Shown: positions 6,941 to 51,011 of the stretch, piece after piece
How the letters are laid out: each line of letters starts with the position of its first letter
Position numbering within the stretch: the first letter of the stretch is position 1
Assembly: GCA_012719955.1 (NCBI GenBank)
Contig: JAAXZI010000049.1
Coordinates: 12,309-76,308 of the forward strand
Origin: Phycisphaerae bacterium
Lineage (GTDB): Bacteria > Planctomycetota > Phycisphaerae > UBA1845 > PWPN01
Direction: 5' to 3'
Length of the DNA: 64,000 nucleotides
Program-made: the position numbers and the translations under genes
Notes under the pieces: generated by a model
What the model was told of the DNA's origin: nothing
The model's input: only the letters and a program-made list of their open reading frames with translations
Databases searched by the model: none

Positions 6941-7390
6941 TCAGCTCTCCGCCCCGTCAGCGGCCGCTTCGTCGCGCTTCTTCAAGTAGCGCAGCCGCAG
7001 CAGGCTGGTCACCCGCTCCACCAGTTCGGCCCGGTTGACCGGCTTGGTCAGAAACTCCTCGGTCCCGCTGTCCACCGCCCGCTCGTGGTCGCCCATCTCG
7101 TCCAGGGCGGTCACCATAACCACAGGGATATCCCGGGTCCGCGGGTCGGTCTTAATTCGCCGGCAGACCTCAAACCCCGACATTTTCGGCATCATGATGT
7201 CCAGCAGGATCAGGTCGGGGGGATCCTCTGCCAGTCTGGCCAGGGCTTCAATTCCGTTCGCCGCCTCCATGGTGGTCACGTTGGGGATATCCTCCACATA
7301 AGCCACGAGGAGCTCCCGGTTCTGGACGTTATCGTCCACGATCAACACTTTCGACGGTGGCGGCACTTCATGTTCTTCGGACGTCAACAC
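6941..7390 (-). CDS. single-domain response regulator (receiver)
   Basis: KVLIVDD ... PDLILLDIMMPKMSGFEVCRRIK ... PVVMVTA matches a CheY-like receiver. Confidence 0.9.
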   Translation of the reverse strand: MLTSEEHEVPPPSKVLIVDDNVQNRELLVAYVEDIPNVTTMEAANGIEALARLAEDPPDLILLDIMMPKMSGFEVCRRIKTDPRTRDIPVVMVTALDEMGDHERAVDSGTEEFLTKPVNRAELVERVTSLLRLRYLKKRDEAAADGAES

Positions 7391-7667
7391 TACTCTCCGT
7401 CAATACCAGGGCCAGAATATCCGCTGGAACCAACTTACGAATGAAGGGAATTGTTACCAAGTCTGGTCGATATGTCCATATCGGGGGGGCGTTTCGCCGA
7501 CAAGGTGCACCGTAACTCCCGTATTTTGACGATCTTAACTCTGGGCGAATTATATAATATTGACAACTGCTTGTGAAGCCGCTTCAACCCTGAACCGATG
7601 TTACTGCTGAGAGGACGTACCCCCTTCAGCCCCCTTGGGCCGGCTGAAACGTGGAGAAGCCGTTTCG

Positions 7668-45670: not shown

Positions 45671-47152
45671 TTACGCACGAAGCTCCTGGAACCGGGCGTA
45701 GGCTTTGTCCCAGGGCGCCGGGTCGCCGGGACGATACACCGTTACCTCGAAAGAGCGACGAATCAGATCGCGTGCGGCGTGGATGTCCGGCAGGACGCCC
45801 GTGGCCATGGCCTGCACCACCACGTTTCCGGCGGCGGTCGCCTCCACCGGCCCGGTAACCACCGTCCGCCCCGTTGCGTCCGCCGCCCACTGGGACAGGT
45901 GACGGTTTTGCGACCCGCCGCCTACGATGTGGATGACTTCGGCGCGCCGGCCGGTGCATTCCTCGATGCGCTCCAGCGTCCAGCGATACACCAGGGCGAG
46001 GCTCTCCAGGCAGGCCCGCACCATCTCACCCGGTTCGGCCAGGGTTGGCTGTCCGGTCTTCTTGCAGTACGCCTGGATGCGCGCCGGCATGTCGCCCGGG
46101 GCGAGGAAGGACGAGTCGTCGGGGTCGATGATCGCGACAAAGGGTTTGGCCGCCGCGGCCATGTCCGCCAGTTCGGCGTAGCTGTACGCCTTGCCGGCCC
46201 GTTCCCAGGTGCGCCGGCATTCCTGCACCAGCCAGAGGCCCATGATGTTCTTGAGGAACCGGAAGGTGCCGCCGACGCCGCCCTCGTTGGTGTAGTTGTA
46301 CTTGAGCGACTGCTCGTTGATGATCGGCTTATCCACTTCCATGCCCATCAGCGACCAGGTGCCGGAGCTCAGGAACACCCACGGCTTGTCCGGCGAGGCG
46401 GGGATAGCCGCCACGGCCGAACCGGTGTCGTGGGTGGCCGGCGCGATTACCGGCACGTCGCCACAGCGGATCTCGTCGCGGACGTCGGCCCGCATGGGTC
46501 CGAGCACGGTGCCGGCCGGCACGATCTCGCCGAAGATCTTCGTGGGGATGCCCAGTTTGGAGATCAGGTCGGTGGCCCACTTGCCGGCCCGCGGGTCGTA
46601 GGCCTGGGTGGTGGTGGCGTTGCTGAACTCGTTGCACTTGCGGCCGGTGAACCAGAAGTTGAACAGGTCGGGCATCATCAGGAACGACTCGGCGATATCC
46701 AGCAGCGGGGAGCCGCCCAGGCGCATGGCCAGGAGCTGGAAGATCGAGTTGAACTGCATGAACTGGATGCCGGTGTGGTTGAAGATTTCCTCGCGGGGGA
46801 CGATGCCGAAGGCCTTGTCGAGAATGCCGTCGGTGCGGGCGTCACGGTAGTGGAACGGATTGCCCAGCAGGGTGTCGCCCTTGCCGAGCAGGCCGAAGTC
46901 CACCCCCCAGGTGTCGATGCCGACGCCCTTAAGCCCGCCGGCCTGCTGGGCGGCCTTGCCGACGCCGGTCTTCATCTCCGACCAGAGCCGGAGGGTATCC
47001 CAGTGCAGTTCGTCGATGGTCCGCACGGGGCCATTGGGGAAGCGATGCAGCTCGGTCAGTTCGAGCTTGGAGTCGCTGACCGAACCAAGAACCACCCGGC
47101 CGCTCTCAGCGCCGAGGTCAATGGCTGCATAATGGGCTGGTTTATTCGGCAT
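45671..47152 (-). CDS. rhaB: rhamnulokinase (FGGY carbohydrate kinase)
   Basis: AAIDLGAESGRVVLGS...ELHRFPNGPV...HWD matches the RhaB N-terminal pattern, and the protein has FGGY length. ggagg precedes the ATG. Confidence 0.75.
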   Translation of the reverse strand: MPNKPAHYAAIDLGAESGRVVLGSVSDSKLELTELHRFPNGPVRTIDELHWDTLRLWSEMKTGVGKAAQQAGGLKGVGIDTWGVDFGLLGKGDTLLGNPFHYRDARTDGILDKAFGIVPREEIFNHTGIQFMQFNSIFQLLAMRLGGSPLLDIAESFLMMPDLFNFWFTGRKCNEFSNATTTQAYDPRAGKWATDLISKLGIPTKIFGEIVPAGTVLGPMRADVRDEIRCGDVPVIAPATHDTGSAVAAIPASPDKPWVFLSSGTWSLMGMEVDKPIINEQSLKYNYTNEGGVGGTFRFLKNIMGLWLVQECRRTWERAGKAYSYAELADMAAAAKPFVAIIDPDDSSFLAPGDMPARIQAYCKKTGQPTLAEPGEMVRACLESLALVYRWTLERIEECTGRRAEVIHIVGGGSQNRHLSQWAADATGRTVVTGPVEATAAGNVVVQAMATGVLPDIHAARDLIRRSFEVTVYRPGDPAPWDKAYARFQELRA

Positions 47153-47181
47153 TCCTGTTCCTCCGTCAAAAAATTGACTCT

Positions 47182-47209
47182 AACCGCCAAGACGCCAAGG
47201 ACGCCAAGG
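47182..47209. repeat. 28-bp inverted repeat, left arm
   Basis: aaccgccaagacgccaaggacgccaagg. It is itself built of three cgccaagg-like units. Confidence 0.9.
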
Positions 47210-47217
47210 TGAATGGA

Positions 47218-47631
47218 TTAAGATAATACCACTCGCTTGACACCATCTTTCAAGACCGGGACATTGAAATTAATGAGCAGGCCAAGCTCACGGCCCGTGG
47301 CTTTGAGATAGGAGATGACCTGGGCCTTGTGAACCGGCAGCAATTCCTCGACAGCCTTCAGTTCAACGATCAACTGATTGGCGACCAGCAGATCCAGCCG
47401 GCTCTCGCCAACACATTTTCCCTTATACTCAACGCCAAATACGACTTGACGACTGAGAGGGATGCCCCCGAGCTCCAATTCAACGCACAAGGCGTCCTCA
47501 TAAACACATTCCAGGTAGCCGGGCCCCAAGATTCGGTGCACCTCGATGGCGGCGCCAATGACCTCGCGGGCCAGCGCATCCACTTCCGGACTGGGCTCTT
47601 TTCTGATGCGATCTGAGTTCGAATCCTGCAT
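47218..47631 (-). CDS. GxxExxY protein (PD-(D/E)XK nuclease-like superfamily)
   Basis: GPGYLECVYEDAL carries the GxxExxY motif, and DLLVANQLIVELKAV is present. The ATG at 47631 follows aagagggaag. The alternative ATG at 47673 lies inside the right repeat arm. Confidence 0.8.
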   Translation of the reverse strand: MQDSNSDRIRKEPSPEVDALAREVIGAAIEVHRILGPGYLECVYEDALCVELELGGIPLSRQVVFGVEYKGKCVGESRLDLLVANQLIVELKAVEELLPVHKAQVISYLKATGRELGLLINFNVPVLKDGVKRVVLS

Positions 47632-47655
47632 TTTTCTTCCCTCTTCTTTCAAGAG

Positions 47656-47683
47656 CCTTGGCGTCCTTGGCATCTTGGCGGTT
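47656..47683. repeat. 28-bp inverted repeat, right arm
   Basis: ccttggcgtccttggcatcttggcggtt. Its reverse complement matches the left arm at 27 of 28 positions. Confidence 0.9.
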
Positions 47684-47690
47684 CAATTCG

Positions 47691-49409
47691 TCAGTGTTTG
47701 AAGTGCCTTGTGCCGGTGAGGATCATGGCCACGTTGGCGGCGTCGGCGACGGCGATGGTCTCGGCGTCGCGGTTGCTGCCGCCGGGGTGGATGATGGCCG
47801 TGATGCCGGCGCCGATGAGCTTCTGCGGGCCGTCGGGGACGGGGAAGAAGGCGTCCCCCGCGGCGACCGCGCCCTGGAGCTTGTCGGCGTGGCCGTTCTC
47901 GCGGGCAAGTTGAATCGCCAGGTCGCAGCTCTTCACGCGCGACATCTGGCCGGCGCCGTTGCCCAAGAGCATGCCGTCGCGACAGAGGGTGATCGCGTTG
48001 CTTTTGGTGTGCTTGCAGACCAGCCAGGCGAACCGCAAATCCGCCATTTCAGATTCCGTAGGCTGACGCTTGGTGACGACTTTCCACTGCTCTTCGTTGA
48101 GGCCAAGGAGGTCGCGGGTCTGGACGAGCATGCCGCCGGTGATTTTCTTGTAGTCCAGCTCGCTGGGGTGCGGCGGAGTGTCCATCGGGCCGACGGCCAG
48201 CAGCCGGCACTCCTTGCCCCACTTGCGTTTTTCGGTGGGCGTGGTGATCAGTTCGATGGCGTCATCGTCGAAGCTGGGCGCAATCCACACGTCGAGCTTG
48301 AAAAACGCCGCCCCGGCCGCCCTGCCCCAGTTCGCAAATGAGTGCATCACCGTGTCGGCGATCTCGCGGGTAACGGGGAAATTCATGCAGAGGACGCCAC
48401 CAGCCGCCGCGATCGGATCGCCCAGGTAGGCCCGGCGGTAGGTGTCGATGGGGTCATCACCGATCGCGCAGCCGCAGGCGTTGGTGTGTTTGATAAACGC
48501 GACGGCATATTGACCCAGCCCGGCACGGGCCAGCTCCTTCACCAGGGACAGGGCCGAATCGCCATCTACGTAATTATTGAACGACAACTCGGAGTTGGCG
48601 TGACAGGTTGCCCGCATCAGGCTTGCTTCCGCCTGGCCTCGGGGATTCTCGGATAAGCCAAAAATGGCCGCCGTCAGATGAGGATTCTCGCCGTACCTCA
48701 ACGCAGAGCGTTTGGTGAGCACAAGCGGCAGGCAAGCCGAATCCAGCCCGTTGCCGCCGGTGCCCAATCCCTGCTTCGATGTTCCGGGGGCATTCTTTTC
48801 AGCAGCCAGCCTGAACTGGTCGGACAAGTACGCACTGATTGAGCTGTCGTAGCCGACGGTGCGTACGAAGACTCGCGATGCCAACAGCACTCGGGTGTGC
48901 GGCTTGACATCCCCTGTCTCGCGCAGCTCGTTCAGAACGATTGGACCCAACGAAGACTCGGGAATAACCACAACATGCTTATGATTCTTCGCCGCCGCGC
49001 GGAGCATGCACGGGCCGCCGATGTCGATCATTTCGATGGCTTGTTCGAAGGTGCAATTCGGGTCGGCGACCGTCTTCTCGAACGGGTAGAGGTTCACCAC
49101 CACCATGTCGATGGGCTTGATGCCGTGCTGTTCGAGCTGGCGCATGTGCCCGGGGTTGTCGCGGTCGGCGAGGATGGCCGCGTGAATCTTGGGGTGCAGG
49201 GTCTTGACCCGGCCATCGAGCATCTCCGGGAAGCCGGTGACCTCTTCGACCATGGTGACGGGGACGCCGGCCTCCTTGAGGTGTTTGGCCGTGCCGCCGG
49301 TGCTGATGATCTCGATGCCGAACTCGTCCACCAGCGCCCGGGCGAAATCGGCAATGCCGGTCTTGTCGTAAACAGCAATTAACGCGCGTTTGATCTTGAT
49401 GTCGCTCAT
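47691..49409 (-). CDS. purH: bifunctional AICAR transformylase / IMP cyclohydrolase
   Basis: The ATG at 49409 gives MSDIKIKRALIAVYDKTGIADFARAL...STGGTAKHLKEAGVPV...GFPEMLDGRVKTLHPKIHA. The C-terminus has GGSNRD. Confidence 0.92.
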   Translation of the reverse strand: MSDIKIKRALIAVYDKTGIADFARALVDEFGIEIISTGGTAKHLKEAGVPVTMVEEVTGFPEMLDGRVKTLHPKIHAAILADRDNPGHMRQLEQHGIKPIDMVVVNLYPFEKTVADPNCTFEQAIEMIDIGGPCMLRAAAKNHKHVVVIPESSLGPIVLNELRETGDVKPHTRVLLASRVFVRTVGYDSSISAYLSDQFRLAAEKNAPGTSKQGLGTGGNGLDSACLPLVLTKRSALRYGENPHLTAAIFGLSENPRGQAEASLMRATCHANSELSFNNYVDGDSALSLVKELARAGLGQYAVAFIKHTNACGCAIGDDPIDTYRRAYLGDPIAAAGGVLCMNFPVTREIADTVMHSFANWGRAAGAAFFKLDVWIAPSFDDDAIELITTPTEKRKWGKECRLLAVGPMDTPPHPSELDYKKITGGMLVQTRDLLGLNEEQWKVVTKRQPTESEMADLRFAWLVCKHTKSNAITLCRDGMLLGNGAGQMSRVKSCDLAIQLARENGHADKLQGAVAAGDAFFPVPDGPQKLIGAGITAIIHPGGSNRDAETIAVADAANVAMILTGTRHFKH

Positions 49410-49586
49410 GGGGCGTATCATAGCCACTGGACGGCAAGAGGAAAATGCGGGCGCCGGGACCGGTGTGCTGAACCGAGGCGAATCCGTGTATGCCAAGCTC
49501 TGTGAGCAGTACTGAATGCGGGCGACGTTACGACCGCAAGCCAGTGCTGACACAGCAGTGGCACAGAGGCCGTTTCCCGGCGTCGA

Positions 49587-49634: not shown

Positions 49635-51011
49635 TCAGAGGCGGGCAGGATGCCCGCCCCCCTTGATATGGTGCAGCCACGCCTGAACGGTAATGCCTAC
49701 CAGCACCAGCCCCGCCGACACCGCGTAGGGCACCGGCAGCCCGAACCGGTCGGCCAGCATCCCGCCCATGGCCGGACCGGCGATACCCATCACCCCCACC
49801 ACCGCCTCGTTGATGGACACGTACCGGGCGGCACGGGTCGGATGGACCAGGGCGTGGTACACGTAGTAGAAGTAAAACGAACCGGCATACACCCCGAAGC
49901 ACACCGCCGCCGTCCAGAACAGCGCCACGTCCCGCCCCACCGCAAATAAGACCATCCCCAGCACGCCGAACAGCCCAAAACCGATCACCGGCCAAGGGCG
50001 GTACATCCAGGTCCGGCTCCAACCCAACAGAAAGCCCACAATCGCCTGCGTTCCACTCAGAAGCAGGAACATCGTGCCCTGGGAAGGCTTGGACAGGCTG
50101 AAGGCCTCAGCACTGACGGGAAAATGGCTGCGGATCATGGTGGCGATCATGCAGCCCAGGCCACCGAACACCCACGCCATCCAGGCCAGGTCGGGCAGAG
50201 AGCCGGCCGCCTTCTCCGAGGGGCGGGTAGCCCGCCCGCCTTGCTCTCCACTGGCACAACAAGTCAGTTCCTGCGGTGATTGCGTGGGGGGCGCCGCCGG
50301 CAGAGGTATAGGGCCCGTGTCGTCAGAAGGCGGACAGGATGTCCGCCCCCCGCTGCCATCCAAAGGCGGGCAGGATGCCCGCCCTCCGATGTCTTCCGAA
50401 GGTGGGCAGGATGTCTGCCCTCCTGGTGGGGCCTCGGCGTGGTGCTTCAGCAGAAATATCCCTATCGCCATCATCGCCGAGGCTGCCGCGTTGAACAGGT
50501 GGCACACCTGCCAGCCGTAAGCCCACAGAAAACCGGCAATAAACGGCCCCAGGGCAAAGCCGCTGCTCCACGAAAACACGTACAATCCTGACGAGCGGGC
50601 CACGCCCTTGTTCTGCCCCTCGTCCACCAGTTTCATAAACACCTGGAACGGCGTGAAGAAAAAGGCGGTCGCGACCCCCTGAATCGCGATGATCACATAC
50701 ATCGCCCGCATGCCCGGCCAGCGCACGTAAGACAGGGCCAGCAGCGCCGTGGCCGTACAGGAAGCCACCAGGATCAACCCGACGTTTCGCCGGTTGACCA
50801 CCTGCCCCGCCCCCAGTGATGACACGAGGTAGACCCCCGCCCAGATGGCGAACAGGCCGCCGGTGGCCATCGATGATCCCGTCATCTCCGCCAGGCGCAC
50901 CGCGCAGACGAACAGAACCGCCGACAATATCACATCCGTAATGCCCGCGAAGGAGTAGACCGTAAGACGAATCAGCGTACGGTCCCAATCTCGCGACAAC
51001 CTGACGGTCAC
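49635..51011 (-). CDS. MFS transporter with a repeat-derived insertion in the central loop
   Basis: There are about 12 hydrophobic segments. The start overlaps the upstream stop (ATGA). The central loop contains GGQTSCPPSEDI/GGRASCPPLDGS/GGRTSCPPSDDT. Confidence 0.8.
   Translation of the reverse strand: MTVRLSRDWDRTLIRLTVYSFAGITDVILSAVLFVCAVRLAEMTGSSMATGGLFAIWAGVYLVSSLGAGQVVNRRNVGLILVASCTATALLALSYVRWPGMRAMYVIIAIQGVATAFFFTPFQVFMKLVDEGQNKGVARSSGLYVFSWSSGFALGPFIAGFLWAYGWQVCHLFNAAASAMMAIGIFLLKHHAEAPPGGQTSCPPSEDIGGRASCPPLDGSGGRTSCPPSDDTGPIPLPAAPPTQSPQELTCCASGEQGGRATRPSEKAAGSLPDLAWMAWVFGGLGCMIATMIRSHFPVSAEAFSLSKPSQGTMFLLLSGTQAIVGFLLGWSRTWMYRPWPVIGFGLFGVLGMVLFAVGRDVALFWTAAVCFGVYAGSFYFYYVYHALVHPTRAARYVSINEAVVGVMGIAGPAMGGMLADRFGLPVPYAVSAGLVLVGITVQAWLHHIKGGGHPARL
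49640..49658. repeat. family-B hairpin forming the last codons of the MFS gene
   Basis: ggcgggca gga tgcccgcc. On the minus strand it reads GGGHPARL followed by the stop. Confidence 0.85.
50329..50419. repeat. family-B hairpin, three copies at exact 36-nt spacing, intragenic and in frame
   Basis: The copies are ggcggacaggatgtccgcc (50329), ggcgggcaggatgcccgcc (50365) and ggtgggcaggatgtctgcc (50401). Confidence 0.85.

Follow-up and report, generated by a model that had tools for sequence, protein, structure and literature searches.

Pairing modular repeats enclose GxxExxY nuclease-family genes across bacterial phyla and also occur as gene-less hairpins

In a 64,000-nt stretch of a Phycisphaerae genome (contig JAAXZI010000049.1; referred to here as the window), a small gene for a protein of the GxxExxY family lies between purH and a rhamnulokinase-family gene and is enclosed by two 28-nt repeats in inverted orientation. 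We refer to the gene and its repeats, or arms, together as the cassette. Comparison of the cassette with related loci revealed that this architecture is family-wide: GxxExxY genes in many phyla are flanked by arms built from the same kind of short cores, the two arms of a locus are complementary to one another core by core, and arms of this kind also form short hairpins that have no gene. It is quite plausible, although far from certain, that cassettes and hairpins make up a family of selfish palindromic elements similar to the REPINs (hairpin-forming doublets of repetitive extragenic palindromic, or REP, sequences) and their REP-associated tyrosine transposases (RAYTs), with a minimal nuclease as the associated protein.

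The original prediction, made from the sequence of the window, described arms that match at 27 of 28 positions, and an inverted-repeat search recovered the same pair (27/28 complementary, 96%; 446 nt apart) as by far the best inverted repeat within the 2-kb neighborhood. The arms were also correctly described as triplicated, as each consists of a CGCCAAG core repeated three times with spacings of 8 and 9 nt. Their sole mismatch forms U:G on the gene strand. The 19-mer GACGCCAAGGACGCCAAGG, with up to three mismatches allowed, was located at just two sites in the 64-kb window, both of them the arms, in comparison to 0.03 sites expected from shuffles. Between the arms the GxxExxY gene is the sole credible open reading frame (ORF), and it is preceded by its own Shine-Dalgarno-like sequence (Table 1), in agreement with the earlier description of the content of the unit. 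The distances to the arms needed slight correction, from 25 to 24 nt between the 5′ arm and the ATG and from 9 to 8 nt between the stop codon and the 3′ arm. The cassette fills most of the space between its neighbors and is co-oriented with both: the AACC end of the 5′ arm lies 7 nt past the purH stop codon, and the 3′ arm ends 29 nt ahead of the kinase ATG. Its GC content is 54% vs. 62.8% for the window.

To compare the flanks of other family members, 80 loci of homologues (50–68% identity) were fetched from species genomes and 87 homologous genes were scored. At least 10 phyla were represented, including Cyanobacteria, Chloroflexi, Planctomycetota, Proteobacteria, Myxococcota, Acidobacteria, Bacteroidota and Verrucomicrobia. 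Each gene received the score of its best ungapped inverted repeat with one arm in the 160 nt preceding the conserved core and the other in the 160 nt after the stop codon, and 448 window pairs shifted within the same loci served as controls (99th percentile, 12; maximum, 13). A flanking inverted repeat above the control 99th percentile was found for 70 of the 87 genes, with an observed median of 21, and about half of the 17 weak-scoring cases had arms of this kind that were degenerate or lay farther away. Such flanks are thus not peculiar to the window copy, which was one of the checks proposed with the original prediction.

Arms were also observed in the genomes of isolates, namely Sorangium, two Calothrix, Planctomycetales ZRK34, Bacteroides finegoldii and Sphingomonas. 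In B. finegoldii (L243; 47% identity) the cassette lies between radA and the gene for an FAD protein and has arms TTCACCACAGAGGAC..., and in Sphingomonas parapaucimobilis (L244, 1483–1950; 39.5% identity) it has arms TTCACGCGAAGGCGCGAGGACGCGAAG and is wedged into a core operon, in the order fabD, GxxExxY, fabG-acpP-fabF. The annotated ORF of the latter cassette reads through the 3′ arm as far as the fabG Shine-Dalgarno sequence. Both organisms can be cultured. The source of the window is a Phycisphaerae metagenome-assembled genome from anaerobic digesters, and for such a source one must consider chance similarity or an assembly artefact. We regard this as so improbable as to be negligible, based on the two matches against 0.03 expected, the identical locus in at least six independent assemblies, and the presence of the same architecture in complete isolate genomes, which shows that it is not an artefact of metagenome assembly.

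The arms follow a common grammar. The outer end is usually (T)GAACC. Two to four cores of 7 nt with the pattern C-R-C-N-R-M-G come next, recurring every 8–10 nt with 1–3 free nucleotides between them, and a purine-rich run often follows. Core types include CGCCAAG, CGCAGAG, CACAGAG, CGCAAAG, CGCGAAG and CACGACG. A single arm is a tandem array of purine-rich cores without self-complementarity, and not a palindrome. The start of the arm is typically within ~30 nt of the upstream stop codon. In compact members, the 5′ arm falls within the first 10 codons of the gene and the 3′ arm directly follows the stop codon. Arms are often visible in protein sequences: the homologue N-termini MNRQDAKNAK, MNRQDARNAKK and NRQDAKDAKK are the translated 5′ arm, and the C-terminal tails LGALGVLAV, LGVLGVLAV and APWRLGGS (WRLGG) are the translated 3′ arm. 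In compact elements the 5′ arm was in frame with the gene in 27 of 42 cases (one third expected), and where it was >60 nt from the gene its frame was random (4 of 21 in frame). An alternative ATG at 47673, within the 5′ arm of the window cassette, does add a repeat-encoded leader (MPRTPRLLKEEGRKMQ...), as had been proposed, and the NRQDAK reading frame usual for the family is there out of frame with the gene body. This indicates that the arm is conserved as nucleotides rather than as protein, and that translation of the arm is common but dispensable. Translated arms explain recurrent annotation artefacts, such as MNRQDAKNAK N-termini and LGVLGVLAV or WRLGG tails, and possibly also two-domain fusions. 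Many representatives of 250–295 aa (P0241, P0242, P0244 and others) contain two GxxExxY domains, and these proteins possibly result from read-through of tandem cassettes, by gene callers or by ribosomes, via in-frame arms. The family is often multi-copy, and three of the 8-kb loci (L020, L022 and L031) had two GxxExxY genes each.

The core type varies among loci, and it agrees between the two arms of one locus. Of 159 cores, which fell into 13 types, 130 were identical to their mirrored partner. Arms with mixed cores were mirrored in register (L008, with CCAAG/CAAAG/CCAAG, as well as L050, L065, L060 and L080), and a shift by one unit destroyed the match. The mismatch rate was 3.5% at core positions vs. 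10.2% at non-core positions. For an analysis of covariation we used the 24 elements with 8+9 spacing, which give a gap-free alignment and a 27-bp stem. In this set, 94.3% of cells paired vs. 85.1% in column shuffles, and double-sided changes were present in 15 of the 27 pairs (70 cells), where shuffles gave 8.6 pairs (27 cells). None of 500 shuffles reached the observed pairing values, although the sequences are related and these figures are not probabilities. When one partner was slid by 1–3 columns, pairing dropped to 34–46%. The spacers between cores appeared unconstrained, and three spacer columns often failed to pair. That cores covary while spacers drift indicates that the conserved object is a paired structure, of approximately three 7-bp helices with small internal loops. 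As judged from these alignments, mirrored unit-specific changes would be hard to obtain other than by selection for pairing. The arm type is only weakly clustered on the protein tree (30 changes vs. 37.6 when permuted; permuted minimum, 31), which fits recognition of shape plus invariant positions.

When the arm sequence rather than the protein was used as the query, hairpins without a gene were found on viral and metagenome contigs. In putative viral contigs of IMG/VR, 29 loci had arms (L094–L122) and none of these had a GxxExxY gene. Most of these matches were hairpins of 60–140 nt with diverse loops, some of them nested in each other. Some of the hairpins on viral contigs adjoin capsid- or scaffold-like ORFs. 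Viral contigs may carry the hairpins from phylum to phylum, or they may simply be targets. The metagenome counts that follow are those among the matches listed (at least 120 loci). There were 65 arm pairs, of which 54 were <300 nt, and for 74 more arm matches no second arm lay within 2.5 kb. All pairs of 465–544 nt, five in number, enclosed GxxExxY, which was the only recurrent cargo, and gene-less hairpins of 60–200 nt numbered ~10 per gene-bearing unit in the arm-first samples. Larger arm intervals had host or phage genes lying between separate hairpins (a GFA enzyme, a GatA-like amidase, capsid-like proteins). No four-helix-bundle (S23p) gene turned up in this sample, which was not aimed at S23p. 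Searches of Rfam with the gene-less hairpins gave only sub-threshold matches to miRNA precursors, on both strands, as expected of generic-hairpin noise. In one contig (L234, 49–1079), an arm pair 1,030 nt apart surrounds a 196-aa ORF that has no Pfam match and has an E-V-K motif after a beta-like segment; this may be another nuclease-type cargo.

Arms and cassettes were also arranged in more complex ways. Tandem arms were present on one side of the cassette in L087, and in L023 and L112/L115 arms were nested against the inside of other arms. Upstream of rhaB in L092 (1–1300) is an array of tandem ~200-nt units, each with a 5′ arm, ~130 nt, a 3′ arm and a 27-nt spacer. At least three of these units are empty and one is filled with a GxxExxY gene, and the ~25 nt immediately ahead of the 3′ arm in the filled unit are also kept in the empty ones. 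In L018, two composite modules of ~220 nt (955–1175 and 7390–7615) lie 6.2 kb apart in inverted orientation, each with several arms of different core types (CGCCAAG, CACAAAG, CACGAAG) and bordered by (GTTTTAC)n heptamer repeats; the GxxExxY cassette sits between both modules.

The protein encoded in the window matches PF13366, PDDEXK_3 (E-value 3.6e-41; 140.6 bits, cutoff 22), and TIGR04256, GxxExxY (5.2e-42; 142.9 bits, cutoff 35). The family motif is G38-x-x-E41-x-x-Y44, and the PD-(D/E)XK residues are D80, E90 and K92. Among 28 homologues, G38, E41, D80, E90 and K92 were invariant and Y44 was at least 90% conserved. In Foldseek searches with an AlphaFold2 (AF2) model of the protein (predicted local distance difference test score, pLDDT, 91.4), the nearest solved folds were Cas4 SSO0001 (4ic1), LHK-Exo and lambda exonuclease, with 3syy and 6m9k among the best matches. 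The top matches had probabilities of 0.9–1.0 but E-values of only 2e-3 to 3e-2 (4ic1, probability 0.99–1.0, E-value 2e-3) and TM-scores of only 0.44–0.52, and no chain in the Protein Data Bank (PDB) had a sequence-level match. The protein resembles nucleases of the Cas4/lambda-exonuclease/RecB type in its invariant E...D...ExK constellation and in the best structural matches to the model, and it differs from them in having only a ~125-aa core, without the Fe-S cluster module. The invariant catalytic residues, the fold like that of Cas4 and lambda exonuclease, and the low ratio of nonsynonymous to synonymous substitution (dN/dS) reported below suggest that the protein is active. No other Pfam or NCBIfam domain was found in the unit, including an IS200/IS605-like HUH tyrosine transposase or a DDE transposase; no search was made for a transposase acting in trans. 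The protein had no match among PADLOC or PHROGs models, and a phage collection had no GxxExxY homologue. Homologues on plasmids were mostly on large (0.4–1.6 Mb) replicons, all of which were typed as non-mobilizable. The family is large, with 20,873 clusters at 50% identity (E ≤ 1e-3) and >8,000 clusters at 90% identity. A 2012 survey of PD-(D/E)XK nucleases listed the function of PF13366 as unknown, with “multiple transfers, mixed clades”.

The pairing of the arms could in principle be needed in DNA or in RNA. Transition mismatches that would form G:U on the sense strand numbered 37 vs. 52 on the antisense strand overall, 12 vs. 17 in cores, and 15 vs. 21 in a curated set. The lack of a sense-strand G:U bias in any of the three counts indicates that selection on Watson-Crick complementarity is strand-neutral. 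A DNA hairpin or cruciform agrees better with this, as far as mismatch counts can tell, than a stem in the sense RNA does. These counts bear on an alternative that we consider unlikely yet worth serious attention, that the cassette acts at the RNA level like an rRNA intervening sequence (IVS). The arms would pair in a purH-GxxExxY-kinase transcript with the ORF in the loop of a 28-bp stem; RNase III or the encoded nuclease would cut the stem, releasing or insulating the GxxExxY mRNA and allowing the host operon to accommodate the insert. Translation of the nuclease, which could be toxic, may also be limited by the stem.

Several observations on the window fit this alternative. The three genes are co-oriented, and a simple scan of the gene strand within the unit found no promoter-like site and no terminator. 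In predicted RNA folds of the full unit, both minimum-free-energy and centroid, the arms form the closing stem (z = −5.5), so the ORF would indeed sit in the loop of a long stem if transcribed, and the lone mismatch of the arms is a U:G pair on the sense strand. The arms have been held in place over saturated synonymous divergence, and those of compact members are located in the first 10 codons, preferentially in frame, and right after the stop codon. The layout is also almost identical to that of the 23S rRNA IVS of Coxiella, which is cut by RNase III and measures 428–444 nt, with a 28-bp terminal stem that has one mismatch and a bulge and encloses an ORF (PMC4990558); the comparison with IVSs offered in the original prediction was therefore architecturally apt. 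Similarities to the IVSs of Coxiella and Leptospira include a unit of ~430–500 nt, a 28-bp stem with one mismatch, an ORF for ~14 kDa in the loop, a GC content below that of the host, and sporadic spread followed by vertical maintenance, and IVSs too are regarded as selfish with an unexplained mobility mechanism (PMC4990558). However, the cassette lies between protein-coding genes rather than in an rRNA helix, with no Rfam match across 46900–47950, its ORF encodes a PD-(D/E)XK nuclease under purifying selection rather than a decaying four-helix-bundle S23p protein, and IVSs are excised by RNase III whereas the cassette mismatches give no RNA-strand signal. Across the family, moreover, neighbors have the orientation of the GxxExxY gene at roughly the rate of ordinary genes (30 of 45 upstream, 27 of 35 downstream), and with one third of upstream neighbors divergent, co-transcription is not general. 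The position of the stem relative to the Shine-Dalgarno sequence and ATG is inconsistent, it is hard to see how gene-less hairpins, nested arms or tandem arrays would serve gene expression, and the nearest folds of the protein are DNA nucleases. Action at the RNA level and a selfish DNA element are not mutually exclusive.

The abundance of short gene-less versions with terminal inverted repeats also raises the possibility that the arms are the ends of a miniature inverted-repeat transposable element (MITE) moved by an unlinked transposase, with GxxExxY as a frequent passenger. In favor of this, the unit has no transposase of its own, and the arm type is only weakly coupled to the protein phylogeny. 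We nevertheless regard this as quite improbable. Flanking direct repeats of 65 elements equaled those of the permuted control, leaving no target-site duplication beyond it. Among the matches listed, no other cargo recurred and every pair of 465–544 nt carried GxxExxY. The position of the gene is fixed, with arms at its first codons and stop codon, and core-by-core complementarity with drifting spacers would be unexpected if a transposase read the ends as duplex. Bacterial MITEs such as Correia/NEMIS and enterobacterial repetitive intergenic consensus (ERIC) elements are short palindromes in operon spacers that can fold in mRNA, and gene-less forms dominate among them. Correia elements have TA duplications and are confined to one genus, and for ERIC we know of no autonomous protein-coding partner. 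GxxExxY cassettes differ from these in their recurrent nuclease cargo, lack of duplication and cross-phylum distribution. Two further candidates were considered. A classical transposon with terminal inverted repeats is disfavored by the same comparison of target-site duplications, and an integron cassette (attC) was rejected because the repeat encloses the gene rather than following it and its ends do not fit RYYYAAC/GTTRRRY.

The history of the site was examined by comparing the purH/rhaB junction in contigs of RhaB homologues. The junction was filled in L087 (RhaB identity 87%), in the contig of P0123 (86%; gene calls only), in L090 (84%) and in L091 (79%), and it was empty in L088 (79%; 79-nt spacer) and L093 (76%; 128-nt spacer). 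In a neighbor-joining tree of RhaB, filled sites formed one clade and empty sites its sister clade, which fits a single gain followed by vertical descent. L092, which is filled and more distant, could not be placed on this history as its contig starts within repeats. At all filled sites the AACC end was 7–12 nt past the purH stop codon, and the cassette proteins of this site were within the top 17 of ~8,000 matches to the window protein, which supports their orthology. The arms have changed in concert: unit 1, which is CCAAG in the window, reads CCATG on both sides of the L091 cassette, and in L090 both arms have CAAAG/CAGAG/CAAAG units. For the proteins, dN/dS was 0.06–0.12, with synonymous sites saturated. 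This saturation occurs under strong bias in GC at third codon positions (GC3) in cassette and rhaB alike (proportion of synonymous differences, pS, 0.72–0.79 vs. 0.50–0.58), and the comparison is uninformative on descent vs. replacement. The low dN/dS and the retention of arms despite synonymous saturation indicate that protein and arms are under purifying selection in place. The spacers of the empty junctions contain palindromes of other kinds, in L093 (2875–2990) an inverted repeat of tandem 7-nt units GCTGTCA/GCGATCA/GCGGTCA with a ~42-nt loop, and in L088 (3922–3975) a GC-rich stem, CCGGGCCG...CGGCCCGG. The purH/rhaB junction may always hold some palindrome, and this could be the insertion target.

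Such persistence prompts the question of whether the gene is simply an ordinary, vertically inherited host gene whose inverted repeat regulates it in cis, as an operator or attenuator of a domesticated nuclease might. Retention of the cassette at the same site in the whole clade under the above dN/dS, the absence of a second copy in the 64-kb window, and the lack of PADLOC or PHROGs matches are in line with this idea. It is made improbable by homologues in many unrelated phyla that are 60–79% identical to the window protein (and by the multiple transfers noted in the survey), by the unrelated housekeeping contexts (purH/kinase, fabD/fabG, radA/FAD protein), by the empty junction in the sister clade, by a GC content below that of the host, and by the independent existence of the arm repeat as hairpins, including on viral contigs. 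The relatives of the window contain at this spacer either the gene with its repeats (L087, L090, L091) or no gene (L088, L093), which, together with the flanks of the other family members, supports the original proposal of a compact selfish or mobile cassette, mobility itself being judged from distribution. In view of the long vertical inheritance under purifying selection, “purely selfish” may be too simple a description of the window copy. Free-standing homing endonuclease genes usually degenerate after fixation, and to our knowledge they have neither conserved modular inverted-repeat brackets nor gene-less hairpin derivatives. The cassette resembles them as a small nuclease gene between conserved genes with filled and empty junctions in relatives and a wide horizontal distribution, but its gene is conserved and not degenerating.

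We hypothesize, with the reservation given at the outset, that the hairpins represent a REPIN- or MITE-like population of selfish palindromic DNA and that the GxxExxY nuclease is their enzyme, in the role that RAYT has for REPINs. The nuclease would recognize the folded arms, as a single-stranded hairpin or an extruded cruciform, via AACC and core positions C1, C3, A6 and G7. Enzymes acting on single-stranded DNA hairpins recognize their substrates by shape plus a few bases, and the invariant positions, required pairing and free spacers of the arms suggest a folded substrate that is read in this way. By cutting the folded arms the nuclease would copy or move hairpin units, and its cutting would also insert its own gene into a hairpin loop or maintain it there. 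The family-wide architecture and the pairing are shown by the comparisons above; this action on the hairpin and any mobility are inferred, the latter from the distribution of the elements. In the lineage of the window, the cassette would have entered the spacer of a purH-to-kinase operon in an ancestor of the Phycisphaerae clade and would have been inherited vertically since, with protein and arms under purifying selection.

The similarities to REPIN/RAYT systems (PMC3116915, PMC3337134, bioRxiv 10.1101/2021.07.10.451892) are a small enzyme gene between inverted copies of a short repeat, a repeat that is far more common as gene-less inverted doublets folding into hairpins, vertical inheritance over long times during which the enzyme is under purifying selection, and the lack of target-site duplications. 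The differences are also considerable. The enzyme here is a 125–137-aa PD-(D/E)XK nuclease and not an IS200/IS605-type HUH tyrosine transposase; the arm is a set of tandem 7-nt cores at 8–10-nt spacing, whereas REP itself is palindromic; the grammar of the repeat is common to many phyla, whereas REPIN repeats are species-specific; the genes are often multi-copy; and the gene-less doublets are known here from metagenome and viral samples, with none in the 64-kb window.

A number of observations weigh against a REPIN-like element. The window has no further copy of the arm in its 64 kb, and a REPIN-like population in this genome is hypothetical. No transposition or cleavage event was observed, there were no near-identical dispersed copies that would signal recent movement, and target-site duplication is absent. 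The insertion junction could not be defined, as the spacers of L088 and L093 were not alignable to the window flanks. Approximately 10% of sampled family members had no detectable arms. A copy on a Fusobacteria plasmid (L245, 1440–1960) is flanked by a 25-nt direct repeat, AGATTTAATCCGTGTACCTAT..., and a Treponema copy (L246, 1410–1900) by an inverted repeat of only 11 nt, ACACGGATTCG. In addition, the preferentially in-frame 5′ arm and the 3′ arm abutting the stop codon point to a role in mRNA, and vertical persistence with intact arms is easier to explain by a function at the level of host or gene than by selfish spread alone. The flanks of L245 and L246 have the motif AATCCGTGT in common and may represent a divergent flank type in AT-rich hosts.

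A bolder version of the hypothesis, which we put forward as tentative and on balance doubtful, is that GxxExxY proteins are the enzymes of an unrecognized class of selfish DNA, in which the nuclease reads a modular hairpin, propagates gene-less units and homes its gene into loops with no target duplication. If so, the mechanism of mobility would be distinct from those of DDE, HUH, serine, tyrosine and TnpB/IscB systems, and it might account for how cassettes with an ORF and a bounding stem, such as rRNA IVSs, arose. In the literature searched, there were few mentions of GxxExxY, one of them a passing gene label, and none on repeats, and queries with the arm sequences, or on nucleases, inverted repeats and non-autonomous elements in combination, returned nothing relevant. 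A widespread cassette has thus apparently gone undescribed so far. GxxExxY/PDDEXK_3 ranks among the large families that bacterial annotation lists without a function, and the bracketed genes, free-standing hairpins and filled and empty sites turn a “hypothetical protein” into concrete experiments. The cassette offers orphan palindromic repeats a counterpart that encodes a protein, and it adds a relative outside rRNA to the ORF-bearing intervening sequences, which have long gone unexplained.

The features of the window cassette and its neighbors are given in Table 1. The identification of purH as the upstream gene, made in the original prediction, is solid. The downstream gene had been named rhaB, which does not stand as an exact name, as its score is below the equivalog cutoff of TIGR02627; NCBI uses the name rhamnulokinase family protein for P0121.

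Table 1. Positions of the cassette, its parts and the neighboring host genes in the window.
Feature	Position	Strand	Details
Whole cassette	47182–47683	−	502 bp; 5′ arm, Shine-Dalgarno sequence, GxxExxY coding sequence and 3′ arm
5′ arm	47656–47683	−	On gene strand, AACCGCCAAGATGCCAAGGACGCCAAGG; AAC plus three CGCCAAG-type cores, middle core TGCCAAG
Shine-Dalgarno-like GAGGG	47639–47643	−	7 nt 5′ of the ATG; within the loop of the arm stem; read from sequence
GxxExxY protein gene	47218–47631	−	137 aa plus stop codon; PF13366/TIGR04256; ATG at 47631
3′ arm	47182–47209	−	On gene strand, CCTTGGCGTCCTTGGCGTCTTGGCGGTT
purH (upstream host gene)	47691–49553	−	NF002049, 589 bits; TIGR00355, 528.1 bits
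Rhamnulokinase-family FGGY kinase gene (downstream host gene)	45671–47152	−	TIGR02627, 479.5 bits (cutoff 527.95)

During our analysis of the window, we noted a second kind of repeat at some distance from the cassette. Three tandem 36-nt units (50318–50425) are located inside the ORF of a major facilitator superfamily (MFS) transporter (49635–51011, minus strand). Each unit contains the palindrome-like GGCGGGCAGGATGCCCGCC, and the units are in frame, encoding repeated GGRxSCPPS-like segments. An inverted partner of this repeat is present at 50221–50242. It looks like a different REP-like repeat that is tolerated in a coding region.

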